A stretch of 25,832 bases of DNA from an uncultured Spirochaetaceae bacterium (GCA_964529055.1 CAZGUL010000002.1:282-26113); one strand, 5' to 3'; positions 2,159 to 21,356 are shown, counted from the first letter of the stretch. Notes: generated from the sequence alone by a model not told the origin. Made by a program: numbers and translations.

Positions 2159-2165
2159 TTTTTCC

Positions 2166-3375: not shown

Positions 3376-3384
3376 GGGGATCTC

Positions 3385-3612: not shown

Positions 3613-3640
3613 ATATCCTCCTTGAGATTAGTGTATATGA

Positions 3641-3669
3641 AATATAATATATATAGAGAAGTGCGTCAA
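3641..3669 (-). promoter_or_regulatory. sigma70-type promoter for glutaredoxin-osmC
   Basis: TTGACG (3669-3664) - 17 nt - TATATT (3646-3641) in an AT-rich intergenic stretch. Confidence 0.7.
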
Positions 3670-5147: not shown

Positions 5148-5190
5148 AGGCGACCACCCATCATGTACAAAATAGAGCCGTGACGGTAAA

Positions 5191-5218
5191 ATTATATCCG
5201 CTACAGCTTTAAAGTCAA
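5191..5218 (-). promoter_or_regulatory. sigma70-type promoter for the HDOD gene
   Basis: TTGACT (5218-5213) - 16 nt - TATAAT (5196-5191). Confidence 0.7.
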
Positions 5219-5219
5219 G

Positions 5220-7619
5220 CTAATTGCCGCCGAAATCCTTCACCTGCAGGGCCATTTCGCGCAGCCGGCGCTGCACCCGGCCGTTCATGCTGCGGGGCGG
5301 AAAGGCGCCCCGGCTCCCCCGGACGCCGGCGGGGATCCCGGTCAGGATTTCCAGCCCCTCGTCCACCGTCGAAACGGCGTAGAGATGGAAGCTTCCGTTC
5401 CGCACCGCTTCCTGGGTCTCGGCGGACAGGATGAGGTTCGGCAGGTTGAGCCGGGGTATCACGACGCCCTGCGTGCCGGTGAGGCCGGTTTTCCGGCACA
5501 CTTCGAAGAAACCTTCGATCTTTTCCGATACGCCGCCCACCGGCTGGATGTCGCCCATCTGGTTGACCGACCCGGTAACGGCGATGTCCTGCCGCAGCGG
5601 AACGTCGGAAACGGCGGACAGCAGGGCGTAGATCTCCGCGGAGGAGGCGGAATCGCCGTCCACCTCGATGTAGCTCTGCTCCAGGCAGATGGTGGCCCGG
5701 ATCGACAGGGGAAAGTCCCTGGCGTACATGGCCTGGAGGTAGCCTTCGATGATGAGAACGCCCTTGTCGTGGATCTCGCCGGACAGGCCGGACTCGCGCT
5801 CGATGTTGATGACCCCGTCGTGCCCCGGGGCCGTCCGCGCCGTTATGACGAGGGGCCGCCCGAAGGCGTAATAGCCCCGGTCCAGGATTGCCAGGCCGTT
5901 GGTCCTGCCAACCAGGCTCCCTGAAAGGGCCATCAGGATTTCGCCGGACAGGATCTGTTCGTCGATTTTTTCCTCCGGCAGGTTGTGAAGGAATTTTCTT
6001 TCCTCCAGTGCCCTGCGAATCGAATCCCGGCCGACGAGTTTTTTTCCCGAAAGCCGGGCCCAATGGTCCGCCTCGCGGATGAGGTCGGCGATAAGCGAAA
6101 AGCGGGTGGTCAATTTGCTCCGGAACTCGCCGACACGCACACCGTACTCCACCACCGCGGCGATGCCCGACGAATCGAACGCGAGCAGTTTTTCCTCTCC
6201 GGAAATCTTCCGGATGAAGTCGATGTACTCACGGGTGCTTTTCCCGTTCCGGTCCATCACGGAATCGAATTCCGCCGGCACCTTGAAAAGCTTCGGGAAG
6301 TCCTCGTCCGAGTTGTACAGGAAATCGTAGACGTGTTCGCCGCCCATGATGATGACCTTCGTATCGATTTCCACCTGCTCGGGCTTCAGCGCCGGCACCT
6401 GGGCGAAAAAGGGGTTCGGCGGGTTCCGGATTTCCGTCCTGCCGTCTTCCAGGGCCCTCTTAAGGCTGTTCCAGGCGTCCTCCTCGTTCAGGATGTCCTC
6501 GGCCCGGAGGATCAGAAAACCGCCGGACGCCCGGACCAGGGCCCCTGCGCGGATCATCATGAAATTGGTGCGGGTCTCCCCGGCCATGTCGACCGCGCTT
6601 TCCTGACTGCCGAACAGGGCCGCGTAGTCCGGACGGGATTCGAAGATCACCGGGGCGCTCGCCATGTCCGCCGCATCGACGATGACATTGACCCCGTACC
6701 GAATCAGTGCGGGTCCGCCGGACGAGTCCTTCGCGGCCGCCTCGTCGGTGAACAGGAACAGATTGGCCTTGATGTCGGCTTCCGCCCGGAGGAGATAATC
6801 CCCTACCTTTTCCGCGGGGTACTCCCGCTTCAGACGGCCGATCTCGTGCCGGAGGTCCGCCTCGACGGCCTCCACCCGGAGGACCTGCAGTTCCTCCTCC
6901 ATTTTGACCCGCCGCCGGCGGAGTTCCATGAAGAGGGCCTTCAGCTCGTCCATGTGCCGGTAATATTTCTCCCGGGTATCGTTCCAGTATTTTTCGGTGA
7001 TTTCGCCGGACCCGACGCGTTTCTGCAGGTCCTCGAAACTGGTCGCCTCGCCCTTGTACAGCGGAAGAAGATCCGACGCCTGTTCCTCCGCGTCCCCGAT
7101 CTGGACGATCTTGAAGCCCCGGGCGGCGACCGCGCCTTCGAATTCCGCGAGCCGGCGGTTTTCCTCGCTTTCCAGGGCCTTCACGACCCGGTCCCGTTTT
7201 TCCGTAAAGGCGTCGCCCGCGAGTTTCGCCGGGACCAGGATTTTCAGGTTCTCCACCAGCCGGTGCATGTCCTTTTTGAAGCTGCGCCCCCCGCCGGCCG
7301 CGAAATACAGGACCCGGGGGTTTTCGGGTCTTTCGAAGTTGTAGACAAAAGCGATGTCCCGGCACCGGGATGTGTCGGACCGGTGTTTTTCCAGAATTTC
7401 CAGGATCGTGGTGCGCTTGCCCGTGCCGGGAAGCCCCGTTACGATGAGGTTGTAGCCTTTCGCGCGGATCGACATTCCCATCGTCAGGGCGCGGACGGCC
7501 CGCTCCTGTCCGATTATCAGGCTTTCGCCTGAACTTCCCGTGTCCAGGGCGGCGATTTCCTCTTCTGAAATCCCGAACAGGATGTCTTCGATGCGCAATT
7601 CCCGGGAGTTTTTTCTCAT
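5220..7619 (-). CDS. Lon-family (LonC/AAA_32-type) protease, about 799 aa
   Basis: Start reassigned to the ATG at 7619 (MRKNSREL). IIGQERA, Walker A GLPGTGK, Lon_C domain with VDGDSASSAE (Ser) and VGGVSEKIEGF (Lys) dyad. Confidence 0.9.
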   Translation of the reverse strand: MRKNSRELRIEDILFGISEEEIAALDTGSSGESLIIGQERAVRALTMGMSIRAKGYNLIVTGLPGTGKRTTILEILEKHRSDTSRCRDIAFVYNFERPENPRVLYFAAGGGRSFKKDMHRLVENLKILVPAKLAGDAFTEKRDRVVKALESEENRRLAEFEGAVAARGFKIVQIGDAEEQASDLLPLYKGEATSFEDLQKRVGSGEITEKYWNDTREKYYRHMDELKALFMELRRRRVKMEEELQVLRVEAVEADLRHEIGRLKREYPAEKVGDYLLRAEADIKANLFLFTDEAAAKDSSGGPALIRYGVNVIVDAADMASAPVIFESRPDYAALFGSQESAVDMAGETRTNFMMIRAGALVRASGGFLILRAEDILNEEDAWNSLKRALEDGRTEIRNPPNPFFAQVPALKPEQVEIDTKVIIMGGEHVYDFLYNSDEDFPKLFKVPAEFDSVMDRNGKSTREYIDFIRKISGEEKLLAFDSSGIAAVVEYGVRVGEFRSKLTTRFSLIADLIREADHWARLSGKKLVGRDSIRRALEERKFLHNLPEEKIDEQILSGEILMALSGSLVGRTNGLAILDRGYYAFGRPLVITARTAPGHDGVINIERESGLSGEIHDKGVLIIEGYLQAMYARDFPLSIRATICLEQSYIEVDGDSASSAEIYALLSAVSDVPLRQDIAVTGSVNQMGDIQPVGGVSEKIEGFFEVCRKTGLTGTQGVVIPRLNLPNLILSAETQEAVRNGSFHLYAVSTVDEGLEILTGIPAGVRGSRGAFPPRSMNGRVQRRLREMALQVKDFGGN

Positions 7620-7628
7620 GATTACCCC

Positions 7629-7657
7629 ATAATAGGAGCGCCCGCGGGAAGTGTCAA
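7629..7657 (-). promoter_or_regulatory. sigma70-type promoter for the Lon-like gene
   Basis: TTGACA (7657-7652) - 17 nt - TATTAT (7634-7629); ATG follows 9 nt later. Confidence 0.75.
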
Positions 7658-7680
7658 GGAAACCCCGGGCAGCCGGCCCC

Positions 7681-7709
7681 TTGCCCCCCCCGGGACGCAG
7701 CCGTATAAT
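7681..7709 (+). promoter_or_regulatory. sigma70-type promoter for nif3-lspA operon (likely leaderless)
   Basis: TTGCCC (7681-7686) - 17 nt - TATAAT (7704-7709); ATG follows 6 nt later. Confidence 0.75.
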
Positions 7710-7715
7710 GGAGCC

Positions 7716-8477
7716 ATGCTGCTGCGCGAACTGGACCGTTATTTCCGCTCTCTCCTTCGCATCGACGATATGGTGAAGATCGACGCGTCCCTGAACGGCA
7801 TTCAGGCCGGCCGCCCCGAGCAGAAGATCGGCCGGATCGCATTCGCCGTGGACGCCTGCATGGACTGCTTCCGCCTCGCGACCGCCTGGGGGGCGGAGCT
7901 CCTTTTCGTCCATCACGGTCTCTTCTGGGGGAAGGACCTGCGGGTCACCGGTTCCCACAGGGCCAGGCTGAAACACCTTCTGGATAACGACCTCGCCCTC
8001 TACGCGGCGCATCTTCCGCTGGACATGCATCCGGAGATCGGCAACAACGCGGGGATCGCCTGCGCCCTGGGCCTTGTGGAAACCGTCCCTTTCGGGACCT
8101 ACAAGGGCGTCGACATCGGCATCAAGGGCAGGTTCCCCCGGCCCGTGCGGCTTGCCGAGGTGGAGACCCTCCTGTTCGGCGGCGCGCCGGACGGGTCCCC
8201 CGGCCTGGCCTTCGGAAAGGAATTCGTGGAAACCGCGGGAATAGTTTCCGGCGGCGCGCCGTACGAGGCGTTTCAGGCCGCCGAGCAGGGCCTGGACCTG
8301 TACATCACCGGAGAGGGTTCCCATGCGGTGTACCATTTCGCCCAGGAGGAGGGGCTCAACGTGATTTTCGGCGGCCATTACCGGACCGAGACCTGGGGGG
8401 TGCGGCTCCTCGCGGAAAGGACGGCCCGCGAGACGGGCCTGGAAACCCGGTTCATCGACGTTCCCACGGGGCTGTGA
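7716..8477 (+). CDS. Nif3-like dinuclear metal-centre protein (YbgI family)
   Basis: NGIQ, AFAVDA, LFVHHGLFW, YAAHLPLDMHPEIGNN, YITGE and GGHYRTE motifs. Confidence 0.93.
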   Translation: MLLRELDRYFRSLLRIDDMVKIDASLNGIQAGRPEQKIGRIAFAVDACMDCFRLATAWGAELLFVHHGLFWGKDLRVTGSHRARLKHLLDNDLALYAAHLPLDMHPEIGNNAGIACALGLVETVPFGTYKGVDIGIKGRFPRPVRLAEVETLLFGGAPDGSPGLAFGKEFVETAGIVSGGAPYEAFQAAEQGLDLYITGEGSHAVYHFAQEEGLNVIFGGHYRTETWGVRLLAERTARETGLETRFIDVPTGL

Positions 8478-8479
8478 GA

Positions 8480-9019
8480 ATGGAAAAAATCGCACCTTCC
8501 GGGCTGCCCGCACCGGCGCGGGACAAAATTCTCCCCTTTTGTTTAACCGCGGGCATCGTCGCCGCGGACCAGATCACCAAGTGGCTCGTGGTGGGCAACA
8601 TTCCCCGGAGGACCGTGGGAGCCGCGTTTTTCGGCGATTTTCTGCGGATCATTCACGCCCGCAATCCCGGCATCGCCTTCAGCCTCGGCAGGGACCTTCC
8701 GGACGCGGTGCGGGGCATATTATTCACCGTTCTCCCCATCGTCATTCTGGCCGCCCTGGCGGTGTATTATTTCCGCTCCGACGAATTCACCCGGCTCCAG
8801 CGCTGGGCCGTGGCGGGCATCATCGGCGGAGGGGTCGGCAACCTGATCGACCGGGTCTTCCGCCCCGAGGGGGTCGTGGACTTCATCGACGTCAGATTTT
8901 TCGGCCTTTTCGGCCTGGACAGGTGGCCGACCTTCAACGTGGCGGACTCGTCGGTGGTGGTCTGCGGCGCGCTTCTGGCCGCGTCGATTCTCGCGCACAG
9001 GAAGGACGCCCATGAATAA
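8480..9019 (+). CDS. lspA: Lipoprotein signal peptidase II
   Basis: DQITK, N.GIAFS, GGVGNLIDR, VVDFI and WPTFNVADS motifs. ATG at 8480; an alternative GTG lies at 8474. Confidence 0.95.
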   Translation: MEKIAPSGLPAPARDKILPFCLTAGIVAADQITKWLVVGNIPRRTVGAAFFGDFLRIIHARNPGIAFSLGRDLPDAVRGILFTVLPIVILAALAVYYFRSDEFTRLQRWAVAGIIGGGVGNLIDRVFRPEGVVDFIDVRFFGLFGLDRWPTFNVADSSVVVCGALLAASILAHRKDAHE

Positions 9020-9313: not shown

Positions 9314-10981
9314 TCAGTAGCCGTCGGACATGGCCCGGTTCTGGTCCTTCTTGCAGAGCTCCGCGTACACGAAGCCCCGGGTCTTCAGCTTGTCCCTGAC
9401 TTCCTGCGGGAAGGGAAGGTACCGCCAGAAGATTCCCCGGACTTCCCGGTCGAGCTTCTGGGTGCCTTCGCTTTCCTTGGATATCCACAGGATGTAATCC
9501 TGGATGAAGGACTCCCGGACGTCTCCCTTCATCTTCCGTTCGGAGAACCACTGGTAGTACCAGCCCGTGAGGCCTTCCTCCATCCAGTAGTGCTGGGCCT
9601 TTTCCTTGGCGACCTGCCAGCGCATGTCCGCCAGGGCCGCGATGACCGCGGTCTTGAGTTCCTTCGGATACAGGGGGATCGCGACCCGTCCCCGTCCCGT
9701 CGCACGGTTGAACCGCTCGAAGGGTTCCCAGCAGATACCGGTGTCCCCGTAGCACGGGATCACCACGATGTTCGGCACGATGCGGTTCGTCTGCTGTTTG
9801 AAGGTGCGCAGGAAAAGCCCCGGGTCCAGATACTCCACGTCGGCCAGGATGTTGACCAGGTTTTCCCGGGTGCCTATGTCTAGGATGTTGCTGCGGATGT
9901 ACTGCTTCAGCAGAATGGGAAAATGGTTTCCCTGCCGGCCCACGCACATCTTGGCCATCTGCCGGACGGTGTTGAGCTCGTCCAGAATCGTCTTGTTGTC
10001 CACCGCGGCGCTGACCCCGAGTTCCTGTTCCTTTCGCCGCAGCTCTTCCATCTGCTCCCGGATGCCGTCGAGCTCGGAAAAATAGCGCAACTGGTCCCGG
10101 TTGACGGTTCCAAGACGCCGGAGGATGTCGCCGATATCGTTAAAGGCGCCCCGCTGTATCTCCGAGTACGGAAGCTTCAGCCCCGGAAGGTCGGGCCGGG
10201 TCTCGTGCTCGGAGATCTGCCGGACCCGCTCCTGGAGGCGGGCCTCCAGATCGTCCATCTCGTTCATCCTGTTCCGGATGAGCCCGAGCTGGGCCTCGTA
10301 CTTTCCCCGGGTCCGCTCCACGATGGCGTTCATCTTCTGCTTGTCGTCCCGCCGGGCCTGCTTCGTCTCGTCCTGGACGGAGGCGCTCACCTGCCCCCGT
10401 GCCACCGCCGTGAGCCACTCGTCCACGTAGTAAATCGGCTCGCCGCAGCGGTTGTCCCAGATGATTTTGGCGAGCATGTCCCTCTGCTCCGCCGAAATGA
10501 CCGTGGGCAGCAGGACCGAGTACCGCATGAAGAGCTTCTTGGGCATCGGCATGTCCCGGGTGATCTTGACGGCCAGGCGACCGAGGAGCTCCCAGTAGAC
10601 GGGAATGAGCCGGCCGCGGAACACCGAACGCTCCTGGGGGTCCTGGACTGTCATGAAGGAGCTGAAGTAACTGTGCAGTTTTTTGGATACGTCGCCCTCG
10701 CCGGAGAGGACGGTCTTGTAGAATTCCTTGTCCTGGAACAGGGGTTTGGACGGTTCTTCTATTTTTTCCGGCCGACGGAAGGCCCGCACGGCGGTATCGG
10801 CGCCTTCCAAGGGTTCCAGAAGTTCCGCGTCATCGGCGCCGCCTTCCTCGAACAGCTCGGCGAATTCAGGTTCTCCGTCCCGGTCCGCCGGCTCGGGGGC
10901 CTCTATCCCCATCAGGCCGGCGATTTCCGGATCAATCTCGCCTCTGAATCTGCTGTCCGAAGAAGACTGATCTTTGTTCAT
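9314..10981 (-). CDS. Hypothetical protein, about 555 aa, acidic N-terminus and central coiled coil
   Basis: Long ORF with strong GC3 bias. The ORF-track start (11035) lies inside the tRNA; the first plausible ATG is 10981 (MNKDQSS). Confidence 0.8.
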   Translation of the reverse strand: MNKDQSSSDSRFRGEIDPEIAGLMGIEAPEPADRDGEPEFAELFEEGGADDAELLEPLEGADTAVRAFRRPEKIEEPSKPLFQDKEFYKTVLSGEGDVSKKLHSYFSSFMTVQDPQERSVFRGRLIPVYWELLGRLAVKITRDMPMPKKLFMRYSVLLPTVISAEQRDMLAKIIWDNRCGEPIYYVDEWLTAVARGQVSASVQDETKQARRDDKQKMNAIVERTRGKYEAQLGLIRNRMNEMDDLEARLQERVRQISEHETRPDLPGLKLPYSEIQRGAFNDIGDILRRLGTVNRDQLRYFSELDGIREQMEELRRKEQELGVSAAVDNKTILDELNTVRQMAKMCVGRQGNHFPILLKQYIRSNILDIGTRENLVNILADVEYLDPGLFLRTFKQQTNRIVPNIVVIPCYGDTGICWEPFERFNRATGRGRVAIPLYPKELKTAVIAALADMRWQVAKEKAQHYWMEEGLTGWYYQWFSERKMKGDVRESFIQDYILWISKESEGTQKLDREVRGIFWRYLPFPQEVRDKLKTRGFVYAELCKKDQNRAMSDGY

Positions 10982-10993
10982 GCATGCTTCGTA

Positions 10994-11067
10994 TGGAGGT
11001 GACGGGAATCGAACCCGTGACCCCTTGAATGCCATTCAAGTACTCTAGCCAGCTGAGCTACACCCCC
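10994..11067 (-). tRNA. tRNA-Ala(GGC), CCA not encoded
   Basis: GGGGGTG-TA-GCTC-AGCTGGCTA-GAGT-A-CTTGA-ATGGCAT-TCAAG-GGGTC-ACGGG-TTCGATT-CCCGT-CACCTCC-A; G3:U70 Ala identity pair and the A32-U38 pair typical of tRNA-Ala(GGC). Confidence 0.97.
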
Positions 11068-11080
11068 GAAGTTATGGGCC

Positions 11081-11109
11081 ATGATAATCGGAAGAGTTCC
11101 GGCTGTCAA
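11081..11109 (-). promoter_or_regulatory. sigma70 promoter for tRNA-Ala
   Basis: TTGACA (11109-11104) - 17 nt - TATCAT (11086-11081), followed by a GC-rich GGCCC discriminator-like element. Confidence 0.8.
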
Positions 11110-11124
11110 GGCCCCGCATCGTCA

Positions 11125-12621
11125 TTAATAGTGATGTCCGAGCCCTATGAAGGCCTCCCATCTCCTCCAGCGCTTGCCGTCGTCGTCACGCCGGGGGGCA
11201 AGACCGGTGATCTGGTGGTCGTCCAGCACCGCTTCCAGGTCGAAGCCCAGAGAAGCCCGCAGGTACAGGCTCCGGGCGAACTTCGGGAAAACCACGACCT
11301 GAAGGCCGCCGCCGTAGTACATCTCGTCGAGTTTGAAGGACTCGTCCTCCCGTTTGACCAGCGCGAAGTCGAGGAAGGGGCCGGCCTGCACCTCGAAGTA
11401 GGGGGCGAGGAACCACATCCACATTTTCACGGCGATGTCGGTGTTCAGGAAAAGTCCCGCGTCGCCCTGCAGGCGGTCGTCCAGGATGCCCCGGATGGGC
11501 TCGCCAACGTCGTCGCCGTCCTCCAGGCCCCGCTCCTTGTCGAACTGGAAAAAGCCGCTGAACCGTCCGGAAATGCCGATCCACGAAAAGGCCTTGTGGC
11601 CCACAGCCTTCCAGTCCAGGGAGTTTTTCCACCGGGCTTCCCCGGGGTTGTAGATGACCGTATTGCCGAAGGAGAGTTCCGCCCCGTCGCGGAAATTGCC
11701 GTACCAGTCCACCCTCTCGACGAAGACCGCGTGGGTAAAACCGGGCTCCGCCCCCCTGCGTTCCTCGCTGAGCTCCTTGTCGAACCGGTACTTGACCTGG
11801 GCGAATACGTCCGGGCCGTACTGCAGGGCGCCAAGGCGGCCCAGGGTCCAGGGAAGGTCGAAGTCCGTCCCGAAGGCAACCTTGCTCTGGTGATACCGCC
11901 TGTCCCCGTAGTAATCGTCGTCGTCGTACACGTAGGCCTGCGACAATTCCAGGGTCCAGTCCTGCCTGTCCACCGGGAAATCCACGGCCATGGACGCGGT
12001 GATGTCGAATTTATAGTCGTCGTCGTCGGCGTTGTACGTCAGGCCCTGGGTCAGGCCGAACCGCCAGTCCTTGTCCACCAGCCGGAACGGCACGATGAAG
12101 GACAGCTCGTTGCCGAACTCGTTGTCGCCCGTGTCGGTGAAGGTGTAGTCCAGGTTCAGCTTCAGGGTTTCCATGGAGCCAAGGAAGTTGAAGTCCCGGG
12201 CGCGGATGCTGAGGAGAAGTCCCGAGTTCGAGTCGTATTTGAAATAGGGCAAAACAATGACGTTCCAGGTGTCCACCGTCGTCACGACAACGTGAACGGC
12301 CGTCATTCCGTCGGGCCGGGCGCTGGTCGTATAGGAAACCTTGCCTTCCGACAGGACCCGCTGGTTCATGACGACCTGTTCCCGGTCCTTCAGGTACGCC
12401 TCGACCTCCCCGATGGTGACGAAGGTGCGTCCTTCCTCGATCTCGATCTTTTTTTCAAGGGCCCGCTCCCAGGTCCGTCCCGTGATCTGGAACGTTATAT
12501 CCTGGATGACGAACTTTTTTTCGTCTTTTACGGCGGGTCCGCCCTGGGCCGCGGCAATTCCCGCCGCGAACAGAAACGCGACACACGCCACAGCAACTTT
12601 TTTCCCTGGTCGCATTCGCAA
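11125..12621 (-). CDS. Omp85/BamA-TamA-like outer-membrane beta-barrel protein with one POTRA-like domain
   Basis: Signal peptide (KKVAVACVAFLFAAGIAAA-Q); about 85-aa POTRA-like segment ending VVTTVDTW; NFLG; alternating beta strands; IRG motif; FLDF; C-terminal FIGLGHHY. Start is TTG at 12621 or ATG at 12615. Confidence 0.7.
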   Translation of the reverse strand: MRMRPGKKVAVACVAFLFAAGIAAAQGGPAVKDEKKFVIQDITFQITGRTWERALEKKIEIEEGRTFVTIGEVEAYLKDREQVVMNQRVLSEGKVSYTTSARPDGMTAVHVVVTTVDTWNVIVLPYFKYDSNSGLLLSIRARDFNFLGSMETLKLNLDYTFTDTGDNEFGNELSFIVPFRLVDKDWRFGLTQGLTYNADDDDYKFDITASMAVDFPVDRQDWTLELSQAYVYDDDDYYGDRRYHQSKVAFGTDFDLPWTLGRLGALQYGPDVFAQVKYRFDKELSEERRGAEPGFTHAVFVERVDWYGNFRDGAELSFGNTVIYNPGEARWKNSLDWKAVGHKAFSWIGISGRFSGFFQFDKERGLEDGDDVGEPIRGILDDRLQGDAGLFLNTDIAVKMWMWFLAPYFEVQAGPFLDFALVKREDESFKLDEMYYGGGLQVVVFPKFARSLYLRASLGFDLEAVLDDHQITGLAPRRDDDGKRWRRWEAFIGLGHHY

Positions 12622-12680
12622 ATCAGTCTCCCTCGGTTTCCATTACTTTTGTATGTATGGAGGTTTTTGAGCTTTCGTCA

Positions 12681-12709
12681 AGCATACCATTTTCCGATTC
12701 ATCGGACAA
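12681..12709 (-). promoter_or_regulatory. Candidate sigma70 promoter for the Omp85-like gene
   Basis: TTGTCC (12709-12704) - 17 nt - TATGCT (12686-12681), with extended -10 TG. Confidence 0.5.
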
Positions 12710-12754
12710 TATGTCAAGTAGAATTTTACCGGCGTTTCCTCTATAAATGGACCC

Positions 12755-14029
12755 ATGAACGCACACCCCCCGCGGGATGAAGCCCGCGCCCTGGTCAGCC
12801 TGGGCATTACCGCCGCCCTGCACGGCACGATCCACACCCTGAGCCTGTTCCTGAGCCCGCTGAACGCGGAAATCGCGGGATATTTCGGTCTCTCGAGCAT
12901 CGCGACGGTGACGGCCTTCAAATCGGTCTACCTCTTCGTCTACGCGGCCAGCAACCTGCTCTTCGGCGCCCTGACCAACAGGATCCCCGCCAGGGAGGTC
13001 CTGGGAGCCGGGATGATCGTGAACGCCCTGGCGGTGCTCCTGTTCCGGTTCGTGCCGCCGTCGGGGGTCCCGCTGATGTTCGTGCTGTGGATCGTCGGGG
13101 CGATCGGGGGCGGGGTCTACCACCCCGTGGCAAACGCCTTCATCACACGGCTTTTTCCCCGCCGCAAGGGCTGGGCCCTGGGTGTCACCGGCATGGGGGC
13201 CGGCATCGGCTACGCGTTCGGACCCTTCCTGACCGGGTTTCTGTCCGGCGTCCTCGGCCTCTCCTGGAGGGACGTGTCGCTGGTTTTCGGCGGGATGGGG
13301 CTCGCCGTCGGCGCTGCCGCCTTTTTCCTGATCCATGACGCGCCTCCGTCCCCCGTCAAGGCCCCGGTGGAGGCGCCTCCGTCCCCGCCGGCGCCCCCCC
13401 GGGCCGGCGGGCTTTTCGGCCTGCCGCTCCGGCTGTGGATTTTTCTCGTCTTCGTCATCCTCATCACCGGCACGCGGGAAATCGGCATGTGGACGATTCT
13501 GGACATTTCCGACTTTTTCCTGATAACGGCCTTTCCCGGCGGGCCGGGAACCGCGTGGTTTCTGTTCATAATGTACCTGCCCGCCGTTTTCGTGCAGCCC
13601 GTGGCGGGGTCGTTGTCGGACAGACTCGGCAGGAAGAGGCTCGTCACGGCGGCTTTCCTGCTGTACGGCACCGCCGTGGCGTCGCTGGCGGTCTGTCCCG
13701 GAAACCTGCTTTTCCTCCCCTACATGCTGATGGGAGCGGCGTCCAGCGCGTCCATACCGGTCATGGAAGCCCTTGTCGCGGACTTCACGAACCCCCGGAC
13801 CCGGGGGATAATCTTCGGCGTGTTCGTCACCGCCATCATGGGTATCGGCGCCTTGGGGCCCCTCGCGAGCGGCTTGTACCTGGACGCCATGGGACGCACC
13901 CTCGGGGCGTTCCGCAGCTGGATGCTGATCTCGGGAGGGCTCATCGCCTCAGGCGGCATCGCGATGACCGCCTCGGGCGGGCTAATCGCCCGCCTTGGCC
14001 TGAAAGCGGAAAAGGAGCACCCGGTCTAA
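12755..14029 (+). CDS. Major facilitator superfamily transporter
   Basis: 424 aa with about 12 hydrophobic segments; [10 protein letters not shown] and [10 protein letters not shown] motif-A repeats; Pro-rich central loop. Confidence 0.92.
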
Positions 14030-14640
14030 ACCGCCAGCGCCTCCCGGTAGCGCCTTTCGACCTCCGGCCAGTTCACCACGTTGAAGAAGGCCGCCACATA
14101 GTCGGCCCGGCGGTTCTGGTACAGGAGGTAGTACGCGTGCTCCCAGACGTCCATGCCGAGGATCGGGATGTCGCCGTCCGTGACGGGACTGTCCTGGTTC
14201 GCCGTGGACAGAACGGCGAGGCTCTTGTCCTTTTTGACCACAAGCCAGGCCCAGCCGCTGCCGAAGCGGGTCATCGCGGCGGAGGACAGTTTCTCCCTGA
14301 ACGCCGCAAAGCTGCCGAATCCCGCCTTTATCCCCTCGGCCAGCCGTCCTCCCGGCTCGCCGCCGCCCGAGGGACTCAGGATGGTCCAGAACAGGGAATG
14401 GTTCGCGTGGCCGCAGCAGTTGTTGCGGACCGCGGTCCTGAACGATTACGGAAGGGACGAAAGACCGGCGAGAAGTTTTTCCAGGGGCCAGGCGGAATAT
14501 TCGGTGCCCTCGACGGCCTTGTTCAGGTTGGCCACATACGCTCCGTGGTGTTTTTCGTGATGAATGGTCATGGTGCGTTCGTCGATGTGGGGCTCCAGGG
14601 CTGCGTACGGATACGGAAGGGGGGGTAAACTGAAAGACAT
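14026..14640 (-). pseudogene. sodA: Mn/Fe superoxide dismutase (Mn-type signature) interrupted by in-frame TAA at 14446-14448; true pseudogene or sequence error
   Basis: [45 protein letters not shown] and DVWEHAYY are all in one frame; the only break is TAA at codon 65. Confidence 0.9.
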
Positions 14641-14684
14641 GTTCGTCTCCTTGAAGCTCGGGATGGGCTTTCTCAGGAAAGCTA

Positions 14685-14707
14685 TTTATTACTAAATTAG
14701 TCATAAA
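14685..14707. promoter_or_regulatory. AT-rich 11-1-11 inverted repeat overlapping the sodA -10 (candidate operator)
   Basis: TTTATTACTAA-A-TTAGTCATAAA with one mismatch. The sodA promoter TTGCCG (14722-14717) - 17 nt - TAATTT (14699-14694) has its -10 at the palindrome centre. Confidence 0.6.
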
Positions 14708-14742
14708 ATAACCCGGCGGCAAGTTTCCCGTCGAAAAAACGC

Positions 14743-14772
14743 TCGACAGATCCCGGCCCGTCCGGTTACACT
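14743..14772 (+). promoter_or_regulatory. Candidate sigma70 promoter for the ACT-domain gene (likely leaderless)
   Basis: TCGACA (14743-14748) - 18 nt - TACACT (14767-14772); ATG 6 nt later; no SD. Confidence 0.55.
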
Positions 14773-14778
14773 GCCGTC

Positions 14779-15330
14779 ATGACGCAGGAAAAAGTTTTCG
14801 CGGTTTTCACCGCCCTGGGGACCGACCGCATCGGCATAGCGGACGACATCGCGAAGGCGGTCTCGGATCTGGGTCTCAACATCGAGGAAAGCAAAATGTC
14901 CGTGCTGGGCGGGGAGTTCGCCGTCATCATGCTGGTTTCCGGCGGGCGCAAGGGCATGGTCGCGCTGTCCGACGACCTGGAGAAACTCGGCGTGTCCTTC
15001 GGTCTCCGTCTGTCCCTGCGGCCGACCCGGGGGCCCGAGGAGGCGGGCGCCGGGATCCCCTACCTCCTGGAAACGGTTTCCCAGGACACCCCGGGCATCG
15101 TCCATTCCGTCACGGCGGTGCTGCGGAAAAACGCTGTCAACATCGAGGACCTGGAAACCGAAACGGTTCCGGCCCCGCTCACCGGGGCGCCGCTGTTCCG
15201 GATGAAGGCCCGGATCGTGCTCCCGCCGAAGCTGTCCGCGGCCCGGCTCCGCCGGGAGCTTGCGGACCTGGGGGAAAGACAGGACCTGAACATCGAGGTG
15301 AAGCCGCTTTTCCCGGCCGCGTCGGAGTAG
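14779..15330 (+). CDS. GcvR-like tandem ACT-domain protein
   Basis: GTDRIGIA...NIEESKMSVLGGEFAVIMLV and QDTPGIVHSVT..L....VNIEDLET...AP.TG.PLF: two ACT domains. Confidence 0.88.
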   Translation: MTQEKVFAVFTALGTDRIGIADDIAKAVSDLGLNIEESKMSVLGGEFAVIMLVSGGRKGMVALSDDLEKLGVSFGLRLSLRPTRGPEEAGAGIPYLLETVSQDTPGIVHSVTAVLRKNAVNIEDLETETVPAPLTGAPLFRMKARIVLPPKLSAARLRRELADLGERQDLNIEVKPLFPAASE

Positions 15331-15334
15331 GTTC

Positions 15335-16015
15335 CTATCCGGCCTGGCGGAGGATCTTTTTCGGAAGCCCGGCGAACACGGCGATATCCTCATCCGAACC
15401 GACGACGAGGACCACATCGCCTTCGGTAAACGTGTAATCCGGCGCGAAGAAAAAATAATCGCCCTCCTCGCCGTTCTTTATCGCCACCACATTTATCCCC
15501 GCCGACTGTCTGAGCCGGAGCTCCACCAGGGGTTTTCCGTAGAACCTGGGAGGAACCCGGACTTCCGCCATGCCTATGCCGCTGCCGACCCGCAGAAACT
15601 GCTGCAGACGTGACGAAAACAGCCGCGGAAGTATGGCCCGCACGGCATCCCGCGGGGGGTAGACGATTTCATCGGCGCCGATGATGCGCAGGATGCCGCC
15701 CTGTCTTTCACTTTGAGCCCGCGCGATGATTTTCCCGGCCTTGATGGAATGCAGATGATGGGTCACCAGAATCGCCGCTTCCAGATGTTCTCCCAGGTCC
15801 ACGATCGCGTAATCGAGATGATGATGTATCATCTTCTCGAGCAGGGCTTCGTTGTTCACGTCCATCACATACGCTTCGGCCACGCGGTCCTTGTACGTGT
15901 CGATCACTTCCTCCTGCCGGTCGATGATGATGAGTTCCACATCGAGCTCCAGAAGCTCGTCGAGCATTCTGCGTCCGAAGGATCCCAACCCGATCAGTGC
16001 TATACGCCGTTTCAT
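15335..16015 (-). CDS. ktrA: Ktr/Trk K+ uptake regulatory subunit (RCK_N + RCK_C)
   Basis: IGLGSFG Rossmann motif, IIARA, IGADEIVYP, and a C-terminal INVVAIK...GD..LVVG RCK_C domain. Confidence 0.88.
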   Translation of the reverse strand: MKRRIALIGLGSFGRRMLDELLELDVELIIIDRQEEVIDTYKDRVAEAYVMDVNNEALLEKMIHHHLDYAIVDLGEHLEAAILVTHHLHSIKAGKIIARAQSERQGGILRIIGADEIVYPPRDAVRAILPRLFSSRLQQFLRVGSGIGMAEVRVPPRFYGKPLVELRLRQSAGINVVAIKNGEEGDYFFFAPDYTFTEGDVVLVVGSDEDIAVFAGLPKKILRQAG

Positions 16016-16025
16016 GAAAAACCTC

Positions 16026-17360
16026 TCACGCGATCAGTACGGTGCCTTCCGGGTAGACCGAGACTTCGCGGCAACTTCGCGCGATCGGCAGGGACATCGC
16101 GATTAGTCCGACCCTTCCGGCAAACATGGTCAGGATGAGAACGACTTTGCCGGCTCCCGACAGGTGCGATGTCGCACCCAGCGAAAGACCCACCGTCCCG
16201 AAAGCGGAGACCGTCTCGAAAAGAAGATCGAGAAAGGACGGAGCTCCCGCGGATCGGGAGAGCGTTTCCGTTACGGAAAGCGCGAAAGCGGACATACCGA
16301 CAAGGGTCACCGCTTTCAAAACGAGAAGCCCCGCCGAAGTCGTCGTCTTCTTCGTAAGACGGCGGCCGTCGACGACTATGTCGCCGTACTCGTCCCCATG
16401 GCGGAACAGATACATAAGCACGATAAAGAACGCCGTGACCTTCACTCCGCCCGCGATGGAGACGGGCGCTCCGCCCACGAACATAAGGAACATGGCAAGA
16501 ACCTTCGACGGCAGGGTCATCGCTCCCTGGTCCAGCACGTTGAAACCGGCCGTCCTCGGCGTGACGGACTGAAACAGCGCATTCACCAGGCGATCTTTTC
16601 CGGACAGCGGAGCGAGCAGGTTTTCCGCCTCGAACAGATAGAACATCGCGCAGCCGCCCGCCAGAAGCAGAAAAGTCATCGTTACAACGATCTTTGTATG
16701 ATAGGTGATCCGATATCTGCGCCTCCATACACCGATCGCCAGTTCCTGTATGACCACGAAGCTCAGGCCCCCGGACACGATGAGCCCCATCACGATAAGA
16801 AGAAGAAAAGAGTTCCCCGCGAAACCGGCGAGGCTGTCGCTGAAGGTCGAAAACCCGGCGTTGCAGAAGGCCGAAACTGAATGGAAAACAGCGGTGAAAA
16901 GCGAGGCGGGAGTCCCGGCCGCGGAAAAACGGAAATACAGAAACAGGGCTCCGGCGGTCTCGATGCATATCGTAAACAGCAGGATGTTTCGTATTATACG
17001 GGCGGGATTCTGCTCGACGGTCCCCATGTAGTACGCCCGGATCATTCTCGACTTGTTGAGCGAGATGCGAAGCCCGGGAATGATGAGGTAAATTGTGGTG
17101 AAGGTGATCACGCCCAATCCGCCGAACTGGATCAGGAAAAGGATCACAGTCTGCCCGAACCTGCTGTACGAGGCCGTATCCACCGTGATGAGCCCTGTCA
17201 CGCAGACCGCCGAGGTCGCGGTGAACAGAGCGTCGAGCCGCGAAAGCCTTCCCTGACCATTCCATGCCGAAGGAAGGGACAGCAGGATCGCTCCGACAAG
17301 AATTATCAGAATAAAATAGCCGAAGAGAACGAACTTGTCGGAGGAAACGATCCTTCTCAT
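16026..17360 (-). CDS. ktrB: Ktr/Trk K+ uptake membrane subunit
   Basis: Four pore motifs: TATSAVCVTGL, SAFCNAGFS, TPRTAGF and SAFGTVGLS; gate GG.K and MFAGRVG. Confidence 0.92.
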   Translation of the reverse strand: MRRIVSSDKFVLFGYFILIILVGAILLSLPSAWNGQGRLSRLDALFTATSAVCVTGLITVDTASYSRFGQTVILFLIQFGGLGVITFTTIYLIIPGLRISLNKSRMIRAYYMGTVEQNPARIIRNILLFTICIETAGALFLYFRFSAAGTPASLFTAVFHSVSAFCNAGFSTFSDSLAGFAGNSFLLLIVMGLIVSGGLSFVVIQELAIGVWRRRYRITYHTKIVVTMTFLLLAGGCAMFYLFEAENLLAPLSGKDRLVNALFQSVTPRTAGFNVLDQGAMTLPSKVLAMFLMFVGGAPVSIAGGVKVTAFFIVLMYLFRHGDEYGDIVVDGRRLTKKTTTSAGLLVLKAVTLVGMSAFALSVTETLSRSAGAPSFLDLLFETVSAFGTVGLSLGATSHLSGAGKVVLILTMFAGRVGLIAMSLPIARSCREVSVYPEGTVLIA

Positions 17361-18031
17361 ATTTTAAGCCTGTATCCGACGCCCGGTTCGGTTATCAGCA
17401 CCGCGGGACGGGAGGGTTCCGTTTCAATTTTCTTCCTAAGGCCGTTGATGTAGACCCTGAGATTGTTCGCGTCCTGTCCCTCGTGCCTTCCCCAGACCTC
17501 GGAGATGAGCTGGTCGTGGGTGACGATCTTTCCTGGATGTTGAACAAGAAAGCGCAGAATGGAGTACTCCGTCGGCGTGATCTTGACGCTTTCATCGCCG
17601 CACGCGACTGTCCTGTTCACCAGGTCGACGGACAGCCGCCCGACACGCACCTCCGTCCCGACATCCGGAGGGAAACGACGCCTCAGCGCGACCCGGATCC
17701 GCGCGACAAGCTCAGCGGTGTTGAACGGCTTGACCAGATAGTCGTCGGCGCCGGAATTCAGAAGCTGGACGATATCGGCTTCCCCGTTCCGCACGGAAAG
17801 AACGATGACAGGCACCTGCGATCCGGCCCTGAGGGCTTTCAGGACTTCCAGGCCCTCCATATCGGGAAGACCAAGGTCAAGCAGGACGATGTCGGGCTTG
17901 ATTCCCGCGAACCGCTGAATTCCGTCGCCGCCCCGGCCTTCCTCGCGCACGCTGAAACCCTGCTTTTCCAGACTTATCCGCAGAAGACGCCTGATATGCT
18001 TATCGTCCTCGATTACCAGCACTTCCGTCAT
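17357..18031 (-). CDS. kdpE: OmpR-family response regulator KdpE
   Basis: Start at 18031 (MTEVLVIEDD; ATGA overlap with kdpD). LLDLGLPD, GADDYLVKPF, LRVYINGLRKKIE..PSRP..LITEPGVGYRL. Confidence 0.88.
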   Translation of the reverse strand: MTEVLVIEDDKHIRRLLRISLEKQGFSVREEGRGGDGIQRFAGIKPDIVLLDLGLPDMEGLEVLKALRAGSQVPVIVLSVRNGEADIVQLLNSGADDYLVKPFNTAELVARIRVALRRRFPPDVGTEVRVGRLSVDLVNRTVACGDESVKITPTEYSILRFLVQHPGKIVTHDQLISEVWGRHEGQDANNLRVYINGLRKKIETEPSRPAVLITEPGVGYRLKI

Positions 18032-19968
18032 ATTTCCTCGCTTTCGACGGGCCGAACGCAGCCGGGAACCGACACCTCGATGCACAGTCCTCCGCCCGGT
18101 CGGGGCGATGCCAGAATCGTACCCCCGTGGGCTTCGATGATCCCCCTGCAGATCGACAAGCCAAGTCCGAAACCGGCTTCCGACTCCGTATTCGCTCCGC
18201 GATAAAACTTCTCGAAAATGAACGGCATCTGGTCCAGCGGGACTCCGGGTCCCGAATCGCAGACCCGGAGCCGGAGACCGCCCCCCTGCACCATCCCCAT
18301 CAGCCAGATCTGCGTTCCCGCAGGCGTATGACGCACGACGTTCTGCAGCAGATTGGTCAGGACCTGCACGAACAGCACGAAATCCACTTCGAGCTGACAG
18401 GACCCGCTCTGGACCGACACCTCGACCGTATACCCCTGCAGGTCCCGCGAAAGAGAATCAAGTACTACGCCGATGACGTCTTCGATCAATACCGGTTCCT
18501 TCCGGAGCTTCAGGTTCTTCGATTCCAGGCGGCTCATGGAAAGGAGGTTCTCGACGATGGAATTCAGTTTTTCGGATGCCTGCAGGACTTCGTCGAGAAG
18601 GTCCGCCCTTGCCTGGGGATCTTCCGCCGTCGACGGCTCCATCATGGCGGTCACGGCGCCTTTTATCGTCGTGAGGGGAGTCCTGAGTTCGTGGGACACG
18701 AGATTCAGAAGAATCTTTCCGAGCCGCTCCGATTCCGCCGTCACCAGGCTTTTCTGCTTCGCCTGCGTCAGCTGCTCACGCTCGAGGGCCTGAGAAAGGC
18801 TCTGCAGCACCGTAAGGAGAAGATCTTCCTGCTCCGCACTCCAGAGCTTGTCGTACGAAAGCCGGATACCGAAAACCCCCACGACCGAATCCGGCGTCGC
18901 CAGGGGAATGTAGTGGAACATCGCGGTTTCGAAATTCTGGGCATAGCGGCCGCATATCCTGTTGTTCTGGAAACACCATTCCGCGGTTTTTCTTTCTTCG
19001 CCGGGAAGCTTGAACTCCCGGATGCTGTAGACTCTATCCGCGAGACATTGACGTTCGTCTCCGGATATCATGATGCATTGCCCGCCGAGCTGATGCTCGA
19101 TGCCGGTCAGGCTGGAAATGATCAGGTCCTCGGTCGTTTTCTTTTCTGAAAGCCCTTCCACGAAATTGTAGAGAAAGGACATCCGTTCTTCCCGCATTTC
19201 CAGCATATCCGCGTTTGTCCGGACACGGGTGGCCAGGAACCCCGTTGTCAGCGCGGTCACGAAGAACATCAGGAACATCAGCATGTCCTCCGCCGATCCG
19301 ATCGTGAAAGTGTTGAGGGGGGGAATAAAGAAGAAGTTCCAGCTCACGGCCGCAAGGACTGCGGCGAGCAGCACCGTCGTCCGCTTCAGGAAAAAAGCGA
19401 GCGCGGTGATGACCAGAAGGTATACGATTGAAATACCGTGATAGCCGAAGACCGGGCGTATCATCATGGTGAATATCGTTACCGCGGATACGATGCCCAA
19501 TCCCGCGAGGGGTTGGAGAAATGGGGCGTTTTTCCAGATGAACCGGAATTGCCGATCCTTTTTTTTCGCCTCGAAATCCTTCTCCTGTAGGACAAGAACG
19601 TCAATGGGACCGCTCCGGCGGAGTATCTGGCGGGAGAGGTACGATCGGGAGCGGAAACGCAAGGCGCCGTGCGGGCCGGATTTTCCGATGATTATCTGCG
19701 TGGCGCCCTTCATGCGGGCATACCCGACGATGGCCGCCGCGACATCATCCGATGTCAGCGCTCCTATTTCCGCACCAAGGCGCCGCGCAAGATCAAGGTT
19801 CTTCCGGAGCACGTCCCGCCCCTCGGAACGCGACTCCCCCGGTACATCGACGTGCAGGACGGTCCACCGGGCATTGAGGGGACCAACAAGTTCATGGGTC
19901 CACCGGATCAGGTATTCCGAATGAGGACTTGAGCTGATGGCAACCAGAAAATGCTTTTTCTCCGCCAT
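18028..19968 (-). CDS. kdpD: KdpD-like sensor histidine kinase lacking the N-terminal KdpD domain (USP - 4TM DUF4118 - GAF - HisKA - HATPase)
   Basis: USP (LVAISSSP...QIIIGKS), WNFFFIPP..TF TM motif, VSHELRTPLT, NLLQNVVRH, DSGPG, FEKFYR and GLGLSIC. Confidence 0.88.
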   Translation of the reverse strand: MAEKKHFLVAISSSPHSEYLIRWTHELVGPLNARWTVLHVDVPGESRSEGRDVLRKNLDLARRLGAEIGALTSDDVAAAIVGYARMKGATQIIIGKSGPHGALRFRSRSYLSRQILRRSGPIDVLVLQEKDFEAKKKDRQFRFIWKNAPFLQPLAGLGIVSAVTIFTMMIRPVFGYHGISIVYLLVITALAFFLKRTTVLLAAVLAAVSWNFFFIPPLNTFTIGSAEDMLMFLMFFVTALTTGFLATRVRTNADMLEMREERMSFLYNFVEGLSEKKTTEDLIISSLTGIEHQLGGQCIMISGDERQCLADRVYSIREFKLPGEERKTAEWCFQNNRICGRYAQNFETAMFHYIPLATPDSVVGVFGIRLSYDKLWSAEQEDLLLTVLQSLSQALEREQLTQAKQKSLVTAESERLGKILLNLVSHELRTPLTTIKGAVTAMMEPSTAEDPQARADLLDEVLQASEKLNSIVENLLSMSRLESKNLKLRKEPVLIEDVIGVVLDSLSRDLQGYTVEVSVQSGSCQLEVDFVLFVQVLTNLLQNVVRHTPAGTQIWLMGMVQGGGLRLRVCDSGPGVPLDQMPFIFEKFYRGANTESEAGFGLGLSICRGIIEAHGGTILASPRPGGGLCIEVSVPGCVRPVESEEI

Positions 19969-19974
19969 AAGACA

Positions 19975-20003
19975 ATAGTAAACCTCCGGTTCCGCAGAGT
20001 AAA
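19975..20003 (-). promoter_or_regulatory. Candidate sigma70 promoter of kdpD-kdpE-ktrB-ktrA (likely leaderless)
   Basis: TTTACT (20003-19998) - 17 nt - TACTAT (19980-19975); ATG 6 nt later. Confidence 0.6.
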
Positions 20004-20014
20004 TTCGGAGGATA

Positions 20015-20052
20015 TTAAAATTGCGGGAAATCCCGTTAAAAAGGCATTAAAA
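20015..20052 (-). repeat. Helically phased TTTTAA direct repeats (candidate KdpE sites)
   Basis: TTAAAA on the + strand at 20015, 20036 and 20047 (spacings 21 and 11), with a degenerate TTTCCC copy at 20025-20030. Confidence 0.55.
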
Positions 20053-20066
20053 TTTTCCGCCGGCTC

Positions 20067-21356
20067 CTACTCCAGGGCCTTGAACAGGATGGCCGACAGG
20101 AAGCCGAAAAGGGTTGCGAGCCCCGTCACGGAACCGCCCTTGCTGTACGCCTCCGGCAGCATCGTTTCGGCGATCATCGTCAGCATCGCTCCCGCCGCCG
20201 TCCCCTCAAGCAGCGTGAAAAGGAAGGGCGGCATTCCTTCGAAGAACAGATTGCCCGCCAGTGAACCGACCCCGGTCATCACCATCAGCGACGTCCACAT
20301 GATCAGGATCCGGGAATACGAGTAGTTGTTCTTCCGCATCGACGCGGAGCTGGAAAGCGCCTCGGGAAAATTCGACAGGAAAAGCCCCGCGAGCAGGGAA
20401 AGGCTTATCCGGGAATGCACCATGCTGGATCCGATGACCAGGGACTCGGGGATGCCGTCCAGGAGCATTCCCAGCCAGATGGCCAGGGGGGCGTGGGAAT
20501 GGGCGGAGGCGGCCTCGCGGATTTCCACGGCAGTCGGGGCGCAATGCTCCTCGCCCAGGTGGCCGGCGGCCTTCCGCATCCAGCGTTCGGCTTCCTCTTC
20601 CGGAATGACCTTTCGCTCCTTCAGGGCCGCGATGCGCTCCTCCGCGACGCGGCGGAAGATCCTCATCAGGGTCGGGGACGTGGCGACCAGCCGGTCGAAG
20701 GAATCCTTGAAGACGATCCAGAGCCGGACGTCCCCGGCCGCGACCGCCGAGGCCGAACGGGGTTCGCCGGTTATCAGGGCCATTTCCCCGAAGACATCCC
20801 CGGGACCCAGCGTCGCGAGCTTCTCCCCCCGCCGGAAGTCCACGATGTCCACGGAGCCCTCCTCCACGATGAAGAGGCTGTCCCCCGGCTCGCCCTGGCG
20901 GATGATGGTGGAGCCTTTTTTGCAGACCCGGCCGGCGATGGAAGGGACCAGGGCGGCGATTTCCTCCGGCGGGAGCCCGTTGAAGAGCGGTATGCCCCCG
21001 AGCCTGCGGAAAAGGACCTTGAGTTTCCGGGCTTTCAGCTTGCGCATGTATCTCTGGGTCGTGGCGGCCTTGCGTAGGAAGGCGCCTTTTCCGTTCAGGA
21101 CCTGGTTGAGCCCCTCGAACAGGAATCCCCCGAAGGCTGCGCCGATCACCAGCGGAAGAAAATGCCTGTGGCGGACGGCTTCGGCGACCAGATCGACCGT
21201 GAGGGCGGACAGAAGTGCCCCGGCCCCGAAAGCGGTCAGGGCCGCCAGGACCCTGTCCCGGGGAGACCGGAACCGCGCCGCGGCCGCCCCCAATGGCAGC
21301 GACACCGCGCTTATGAGGCCCACGAGAAAAGCGCCCAGGAGAGGATTTTCCGGCAT
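20067..21356 (-). CDS. ZIP-family metal transporter with a cyclic-nucleotide-binding domain inserted in the TM3-TM4 loop
   Basis: ZIP motifs FGAGALL (TM2), LDGIPE (TM4), SNFPE (TM5) and AAGAMLTMIAETMLPEA (TM7). cNMP domain IIRQGEPGDSLFIVEEG.V...GDVFGEMALITGEPRSASAVA. AAGGAGG RBS. Confidence 0.88.
   Translation of the reverse strand: MPENPLLGAFLVGLISAVSLPLGAAAARFRSPRDRVLAALTAFGAGALLSALTVDLVAEAVRHRHFLPLVIGAAFGGFLFEGLNQVLNGKGAFLRKAATTQRYMRKLKARKLKVLFRRLGGIPLFNGLPPEEIAALVPSIAGRVCKKGSTIIRQGEPGDSLFIVEEGSVDIVDFRRGEKLATLGPGDVFGEMALITGEPRSASAVAAGDVRLWIVFKDSFDRLVATSPTLMRIFRRVAEERIAALKERKVIPEEEAERWMRKAAGHLGEEHCAPTAVEIREAASAHSHAPLAIWLGMLLDGIPESLVIGSSMVHSRISLSLLAGLFLSNFPEALSSSASMRKNNYSYSRILIMWTSLMVMTGVGSLAGNLFFEGMPPFLFTLLEGTAAGAMLTMIAETMLPEAYSKGGSVTGLATLFGFLSAILFKALE

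Follow-up and report, generated by a model that had tools for sequence, protein, structure and literature searches.

We have analysed a 25,832-nucleotide stretch of DNA from an uncultured Spirochaetaceae bacterium (GCA_964529055.1, CAZGUL010000002.1:282-26113; hereafter the window), which carries on its minus strand the four genes kdpD, kdpE, ktrB and ktrA in a single tight operon. They encode an N-terminally shortened sensor kinase of the KdpD family, a KdpE-family response regulator and the two subunits of a Ktr-type K+ uptake system. Judging from its sequence, we consider it probable that in this spirochaete of sludge and anaerobic-digester habitats the KdpD/KdpE pair is co-transcribed with KtrAB and most likely activates it. 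KdpDE is the textbook case of a two-component system that serves one operon only, kdpFABC, and the usual view of Ktr systems is that they are constitutive and nucleotide-gated. An original prediction, made from the window alone, held that the shortened KdpD and its KdpE control transcription of ktrBA; the conserved linkage of the genes, a unique upstream box and the gene overlaps support such control. The same prediction placed Ktr in the position of KdpFABC. This is true of the locus, the range of the statement being the 26,113-nt metagenomic contig, of which the window makes up nearly the whole, and not the genome. Near-identical sequence is present in sludge, wastewater, anaerobic-digester, landfill and sediment runs.

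Organisation of the operon and its products

The genes follow each other on the minus strand in the order kdpD (19968..18028, 646 amino acids), kdpE (18031..17357 with the ATG at 18031, 224 amino acids), ktrB (17360..16026, 444 amino acids) and ktrA (16015..15335, 226 amino acids). Read off the sequence, the kdpD/kdpE junction (GAGGAAATATGA) and the kdpE/ktrB junction (AAAATATGAG) are both 4-nt ATGA overlaps, which leave no intergenic space for an internal promoter. The last two genes are separated by a 10-nt gap (TGA-GAGGTTTTTC-ATG) with a GAGG ribosome-binding site inside. Coordinates, overlaps and gap of the tight operon first described were all borne out. A generic sigma-70 scan found no minus-strand promoter inside the operon; the promoter and terminator scan was uninformative there. 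The window had also been said to lack kdpA, kdpB and kdpC, and neither these genes nor a separate coding sequence for the KdpD N-terminal domain were found in any of its frames, either by Pfam, including scans of the other large open reading frames (ORFs), or by tblastn with spirochaete KdpA/B/C and KdpD N-domain queries. A riboswitch such as ydaO was sought with Rfam, and tRNA-Ala was the sole Rfam family in the window.

The sensor histidine kinase (hereafter KdpD-short), identified with Pfam and NCBIfam, comprises a USP domain, four transmembrane (TM) helices, a GAF-like domain and the DHp and CA domains. Pfam assigned Usp to residues 5-126 (E 5.5e-7), DUF4118 to 155-257 (E 2.3e-19), HisKA to 421-483 and HATPase_c to 532-635, with no match to PF02702. 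The NCBIfam KdpD model (NF007793) covers the protein from profile position 252 to 886 of 895; in this alignment the ~250 N-terminal residues of canonical KdpD are absent. KdpD-short therefore begins at the USP domain, as had been proposed. The stop codon of the upstream gene lies 98 nt from the kdpD ATG, which leaves no room for a hidden N-terminal kdpD exon, and the start position is kept in a homologue of 71% identity. All catalytic boxes are present, with H426, N543, the G1 box DSGPG (D571-G575), F585-F588 and the G2 box (G599-G604).

An AlphaFold2 (AF2) model of KdpD-short, with 24 short homologues and a mean predicted local distance difference test score (pLDDT) of 80, delineates a USP-type alpha/beta domain (6-127), a helical TM region (151-250), a GAF-like domain (279-375), DHp (378-482) and CA (491-640). 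The GAF domain has no Pfam match in the window KdpD, and homologues carry GAF_3, weak or faint in the locus tables; the alpha/beta domain modelled at 279-375 is a putative GAF-like domain. The closest solved relative of the C-terminal part is E. coli KdpD (6lgq, E 4.6e-41), and Foldseek with the whole AF2 model returned generic histidine-kinase cores only. KdpD is the top NCBIfam family for the kinase (314.6 bits vs 146 bits for the next one, under the equivalog cutoff of 1123 bits), and KdpE is the top family for the regulator (217.6 bits, under the 325-bit equivalog cutoff). The two proteins are therefore members of the KdpD and KdpE families rather than equivalogs.

The original description of this kinase as 'minimal' did not hold: the USP, TM, putative GAF-like and DHp/CA parts are all retained, and even shorter KdpDs that start at the TM region exist. 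Such TM-start proteins of ~500-530 amino acids, devoid of both USP and the N-terminal domain, adjoin kdpABC in loci L052, L060, L067, L070, L077 and L079, and a separate gene for the KdpD N-terminal domain lies nearby in L060, L077 and L079. This combination corresponds to the split architecture of Silberberg et al. and is distinct from the USP-start form of the window.

The OmpR-family regulator KdpE, likewise identified with Pfam and NCBIfam, consists of Response_reg and Trans_reg_C domains and has the acceptor D52 and K101. Its residues R192, R199 and T214 are counterparts of the DNA-contacting R193, R200 and T215 of E. coli KdpE, which that protein requires to bind DNA (PMC3264566). The membrane subunit KtrB was recognised by Pfam (TrkH) and by solved structures: residues 11-442 align with KtrB 8k1s/4j7c and with 7zp9 (E 7e-67), and all four pore-loop glycine motifs are in place (VTGL 54-57, NAGFS 167-171, TAGFN 270-274 and TVGLS 389-393). 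KtrA is a single-RCK gating subunit (Pfam TrkA_N and TrkA_C) whose nearest structures are KtrC 6i8v (E 2.7e-29) and KtrA 4j7c/4j90 (E ~5e-20 to 9e-20), and it contains the nucleotide-binding motif GLGSFG (GxGxxG) at residues 9-14. By these matches, the transporter is of the Ktr type and not of the Trk type.

Conservation of the linkage and a predicted KdpE operator

A protein search yielded 26 complete KdpDs of 637-675 amino acids without PF02702, beside full-length spirochaete KdpDs of ~890 amino acids. When the shared region was used for a neighbour-joining tree, 23 of these 26 proteins grouped in two clades made up of short forms only, at one end of the tree. KdpD and KtrB have named relatives in Spirochaetia, Spirochaetales, Treponema, Marispirochaeta and Salinispira. 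How often the operon occurs, a question raised with the original prediction, was surveyed in 11 short-KdpD lineages, the window included: ktrB/ktrA adjoin kdpDE in ten of them, and KdpD identity across the Ktr-linked loci is 39-71%. The linkage is held through at least three gene orders, which is a classical signature of functional coupling.

The order seen in the window, kdpD-kdpE-ktrB-ktrA, recurs in L093 (71% KdpD identity and the same ACT-domain gene downstream), L094, L095 (on a 270-kb contig), L022 (a Treponema sp. metagenome-assembled genome), L101 and L104, as well as in the long-read assembly L096, where trkH is broken by frameshifts. L003 carries kdpD-kdpE-trkH and then a second unit (14055-16975) made of a diverged response regulator (38% identity to KdpE), trkH and trkA. 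In L001/L002 (GC 65%), trkH-trkA is convergent and lies directly downstream of kdpDE.

Full-length KdpDs served for comparison: 53 loci among the matches listed from a scan of GTDB genomes, mostly with distant KdpDs. Within 6 kb, kdpABC was the neighbour in 38 of these, a KimA-like gene in seven and KtrB in two. Ktr adjacency in 10/11 short vs 2/53 full-length loci among the matches listed corresponds to a Fisher p of 4.6e-9, a value that ignores shared ancestry. L022 was the sole short Ktr-linked locus among the genome-scan matches listed, and a scan of metagenome contigs with the KdpD protein returned distant kinases only and no useful loci. Among full-length spirochaete KdpDs with sufficient flanking DNA, the nearest (L097) is part of kdpA-kdpB-kdpC-x-kdpD-kdpE; the L098 contig is too short to show what lies upstream of kdpD. 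No kdpA/B/C, KimA or KdpD N-domain gene was found by tblastn in 166 kb, the combined length of the window and 10 related loci, with stretches from 82-kb and 270-kb contigs among them. The absence of kdpABC and of a separate N-domain gene thus applies to these 166 kb.

Other contexts of KdpDE were also seen. In other phyla, KdpD-KdpE stands beside an AA_permease_2 protein of 618-649 amino acids that resembles the K+ transporter KimA, in place of kdpABC, as in L036 (12765-14621, Sporomusa acidovorans DSM 3132); further loci of this kind are L012, L038, L049, L064, L051 and L075, with both full-length and TM-start KdpDs among them. These loci suggest that KdpDE has been re-paired with several transporter classes. 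In L099, the stretch 1173-6473 contains kdpDE and then a gene for an 862-amino-acid spermine-synthase-domain protein, with three small ORFs without family match preceding.

By aligning the regions upstream of kdpD we found a putative KdpE-binding box at 20050-20003 on the minus strand, composed of four TTAAT-like half-sites at offsets 0/11/32/43: TTAAT (20050-20046), TTAAC (20039-20035), TTAAT (20018-20014) and CGAAT (20007-20003). Scored as matches of 20 to a fourfold TTAAT model, it reaches 17/20. It is the sole site of at least 15/20 on either strand of the 25.8-kb window, and none of 200 composition-preserving block shuffles reached 17/20. Upstream of kdpD, the box is kept in nine of the ten Ktr-linked lineages, with scores of 20/20 in L095 and L104, 19/20 in L094 and L022, 18/20 in L096, 17/20 in L093 and L101, and 16/20 in L003. 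In each Ktr-linked locus it is the sole site of at least 16/20, save in L003, whose second unit has its own TTAAT box (17/20).

The same 0/11/32/43 geometry is found at the canonical kdpF promoters of three spirochaete kdp operons that were not used to define the box, namely L004 (17/20), L010 (15/20) and L097 (11/20, with a TTAGC variant). The local sequence CTTAACGGGAT is common to L010 and the Ktr-linked L096, the window having TTAACGGGAT. The E. coli KdpE site consists of two AT-rich 6-bp direct repeats, 5 bp apart, with an invariant TT (PMC3264566), and the pairs TTAAT-N6-TTAAC and TTAAT-N6-CGAAT of the window fit this direct-repeat geometry and its 11-bp phasing. Moreover, Ktr-linked and canonical KdpEs share the DNA-contact residues and hardly differ in the recognition helix (NNLRVYINGLRKKIE vs NYLRVYITGLRKKIE) or in the alpha1 helix. 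From the kdpF-promoter geometry, the E. coli phasing and these near-identical helices we infer that the box is the spirochaete KdpE operator, a predicted site placed here before kdpD-kdpE-ktrB-ktrA.

The box adjoins a predicted activator-dependent promoter (20003..19975, minus strand), with a -35-like TTTACT (20003-19998), a 17-nt spacer and a -10-like TACTAT (19980-19975). The proximal half-site overlaps the -35 element, and the generic sigma-70 scan missed this promoter because that element is weak. The -10-like hexamer and the kdpD ATG are 6 nt apart; seven related loci have a hexamer (TATTGT/TATTAT/TATTCT) whose end lies 6-9 nt ahead of their start codon, and a properly placed Shine-Dalgarno sequence is lacking. 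This arrangement points to a leaderless or near-leaderless kdpD mRNA, from a start site that is itself predicted.

Proposed mechanism and alternative explanations

We propose that KdpD-short senses K+ scarcity through its TM and cytoplasmic C-terminal parts, as work on E. coli would suggest, and that the USP domain may modulate this sensing. The kinase would autophosphorylate at H426 and hand the phosphate to D52 of KdpE, both residues being present. Two dimers of phosphorylated KdpE would then bind the four half-sites at 20050-20003, which abut the weak -35 element, and recruit RNA polymerase for transcription of a leaderless kdpD-kdpE-ktrB-ktrA mRNA. The outcome would be positive autoregulation together with Ktr induction, so that sensor, regulator and channel rise together, and at the protein level KtrA would still gate KtrB by means of nucleotides, as it does in other systems of the Ktr type.

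The loss of the N-terminal domain would fit a module that no longer serves a pump. Residues 1-230 of KdpD are a serine kinase that phosphorylates KdpB at S162 and shuts the KdpFABC pump, and nearly every KdpD version in a survey of 5,495 species with the pump retains this domain (PMC11018627). Full-length KdpD was recorded in 55 of 57 Spirochaetota of that survey (PMC11018627). A more far-reaching form of the proposal is full repurposing in a clade of Spirochaetota: genomes without KdpFABC, in which the kinase domain was shed and an autoregulated, leaderless kdpDE-ktrBA operon would be the sole K+-inducible uptake system. This we advance tentatively, as somewhat less probable than its opposite.

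Several observations speak against control of Ktr by KdpDE, or narrow it. The box was partly defined from the sequences on which it is scored, and only the canonical kdpF promoters are independent of its definition. In the GC-rich, convergent L001/L002, no recognisable box was found, relaxed scoring included. The short KdpD of L099, on a 6.7-kb contig, has its KdpE and no Ktr within 3.5 kb downstream. In the Firmicute Peptococcaceae bacterium BICA1-8 (L016, 7103-15608), ktrB-ktrA pairs lie to either side of a KdpD-KdpE pair whose KdpD is full-length; N-domain loss is therefore not required for Ktr linkage, and the two are correlated and not obligatory. Metatranscriptome contigs are short, with a flat depth of 2-5 over the operon and its neighbours alike, and are uninformative on the start site, the operon and its induction. 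Finally, the published survey left additional KdpD variants out of account wherever a species also had a full-length copy (PMC11018627), so that co-occurrence of short and full-length forms could be hidden.

The last point bears on a dual or shared regulon, in which kdpFABC also lies elsewhere in the genome, with or without its own full-length KdpDE. The KdpE of the window would then activate both operons, or the two systems would be cross-regulated through the shared box, and Ktr would be a further target without taking the place of the pump. We regard this as a serious although not the favoured possibility. Canonical spirochaete kdpF promoters carry what is essentially this box, and the KdpE recognition helix, the alpha1 specificity region and the KdpD DHp motif RTPLTTIKG have hardly diverged, with no sign of insulation; since operator and partner-specificity regions are so similar, the two systems would probably cross-talk if they co-exist. 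Against this, no kdp gene was found in the 166 kb around the 11 loci, what the clade has lost is precisely the domain with KdpB as its target, and the Usp-TM-GAF-DHpCA architecture is the only KdpD form in just one of the 5,495 pump-bearing species, even if the survey would hide short variants that co-occur with a full-length copy (PMC11018627). Less probable still is that the wiring is as proposed and the main signal is something other than K+, for example osmolarity, ionic strength or USP-bound cyclic di-AMP (c-di-AMP). The USP domain is retained, and like that of S. aureus KdpD it has an S-x-S element (S12-x-S14) with an aromatic-T-x-x-aromatic strand 20 residues on (W35-T-V-L-H39); a diadenylate cyclase is encoded in all 57 Spirochaetota of the Silberberg set (PMC11018627). 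The S. aureus c-di-AMP motif SXS-X20-FTAXY is, however, matched only in part. Unlike the full-length S. aureus KdpD, which controls kdpFABC, KdpD-short has WTVLH in place of FTAXY, with the essential Tyr (Y271) replaced by His, and its motif is a hybrid of the S. aureus type and the E. coli WXAVY type. As this critical Tyr is His, we claim no c-di-AMP binding for the domain. Conservation is moreover good (profile positions 252-886) in the TM and C-terminal parts, through which E. coli KdpD senses K+.

Mere co-location, that is a constitutive or read-through operon with the AT-rich box acting as an UP element or as the site of another regulator, seems very unlikely to us. No terminator was predicted between the upstream ZIP-family gene and kdpD, and a contig from an RNA run spans 20002-20456, which would suit read-through. 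The 11-bp phased repeats are nevertheless kept at fixed spacing across loci with differing upstream genes, and the same box occurs at canonical kdpF promoters, for which one expects KdpE as activator. As for an artefact, the contig does hold at least one gene with an in-frame stop, described below, yet we see hardly any chance that kdpD is a truncated pseudogene, a mis-assembly or a mis-call. Its ORF is uninterrupted and has every catalytic motif, 26 protein clusters drawn from independent assemblies share the architecture of 637-675 amino acids and the start, and the upstream gene is only 98 nt away. Regulation of Ktr by KdpD-short and KdpE stays our preferred reading.

Traces of expression and the remaining features of the window complete the description. 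Of the operon's words, 55-67% occur in each of four metatranscriptome runs from sludge. An apparent 'joint' 17753/17882 inside kdpE was rejected as a rearrangement: the contigs run into unlike sequence and look like response-regulator genes of other organisms that match a conserved stretch. The upstream neighbour of kdpD (20067-21356, minus strand) encodes a ZIP-family metal transporter with an inserted cyclic-nucleotide-binding domain (residues 144-226), located between the N-terminal membrane helices and the C-terminal half of ZIP; this gene is not kept beside the operon in the related loci. A gene for Fe/Mn superoxide dismutase (14026-14640, minus strand) has an in-frame TAA at codon 65 (14448-14446) and reads 'NNCCGH', where superoxide dismutases have NNGGGH. 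Two public runs show C and not A at 14415 and 14418, which restores Gly-Gly; with the stop codon, these readings suggest that the contig may carry G>T errors or a damaged allele. The tRNA-Ala(GGC) gene (10994-11067, minus strand) is overlapped by the ends of two long ORFs, 9314-11035 (minus) and 11029-12780 (plus), both without Pfam match, and at least their termini are mis-called in the mechanical ORF list. Additionally, the window encodes a 1097-amino-acid Lon-like protease (5220-8513, minus strand) with a LonB-type AAA domain, a LonC helical domain and Lon_C, and a 493-amino-acid HDOD/HD-domain protein (3666-5147, minus strand).

Comparison with known systems and significance

The system resembles E. 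coli KdpDE-kdpFABC in the kinase core (USP, four-TM DUF4118, a putative GAF-like domain and DHp/CA), in its OmpR-family regulator with D52 and the equivalents of R193/R200/T215, in AT-rich 6-bp direct repeats, spaced by 5 bp, that precede a weak -35 element, and in the co-transcription, predicted here, of sensor genes with transporter genes. It differs in that the ~250-residue N-terminal domain of E. coli KdpD (Walker A/B, the KdpB serine kinase) is absent, that the transporter genes are ktrB-ktrA instead of kdpFABC and the sensor genes come first, and that two tandem repeat pairs (four half-sites) stand in place of one pair before an mRNA that is probably leaderless.

Split or shortened, domain-shuffled KdpDs are known: Silberberg et al. 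2024 list TM/GAF/DHpCA kinases and one 'Usp, TM, GAF, DHpCA' case (PMC11018627). Those cases come from genomes with an annotated Kdp pump only, whereas here the N-terminal ASK domain is lost, no separate copy lies nearby and Ktr is the partner; that study does not mention a KdpD linked to Ktr (PMC11018627). Control of KtrAB at the level of transcription, above KtrA gating, has a parallel in B. subtilis ktrAB under the ydaO c-di-AMP riboswitch (PMC11018627). Unlike there, the window has no riboswitch and no room for a leader, and control by a two-component activator is proposed.

That a kinase without the N-terminal domain can work is plausible from laboratory precedent, since E. coli KdpD deprived of its N-terminal cytoplasmic part reportedly remained a K+-responsive kinase (Puppe et al. 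1996). Such truncations were laboratory constructs acting on kdpFABC, whereas KdpD-short belongs to a natural, conserved clade that would act on ktrBA. In the full text searched, with most subscription journals lying outside it, we found no description of a KdpDE-Ktr/TrkH/KimA operon or of KdpDE without kdpFABC, and no report of two-component control of Ktr. As far as we can tell, this is a real, conserved and previously undescribed variant of a well-known system.

Overall, the KdpDE-KtrAB clade would show the K+-sensing cassette to be portable between transporter classes, and if full repurposing is true, the KimA-linked KdpDE loci of other phyla would add to the examples of such portability. 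The clade would also serve as an independent evolutionary test of the 2024 finding on the KdpD N-terminal domain and KdpB, the domain being lost when the module is unlinked from the pump. For annotation, a 'KdpD/KdpE' call should not count as evidence of a Kdp pump. Moreover, the operon offers a compact set of sensor, promoter and transporter, with a defined candidate operator, in which C-terminal sensing by KdpD may be studied free of pump feedback.

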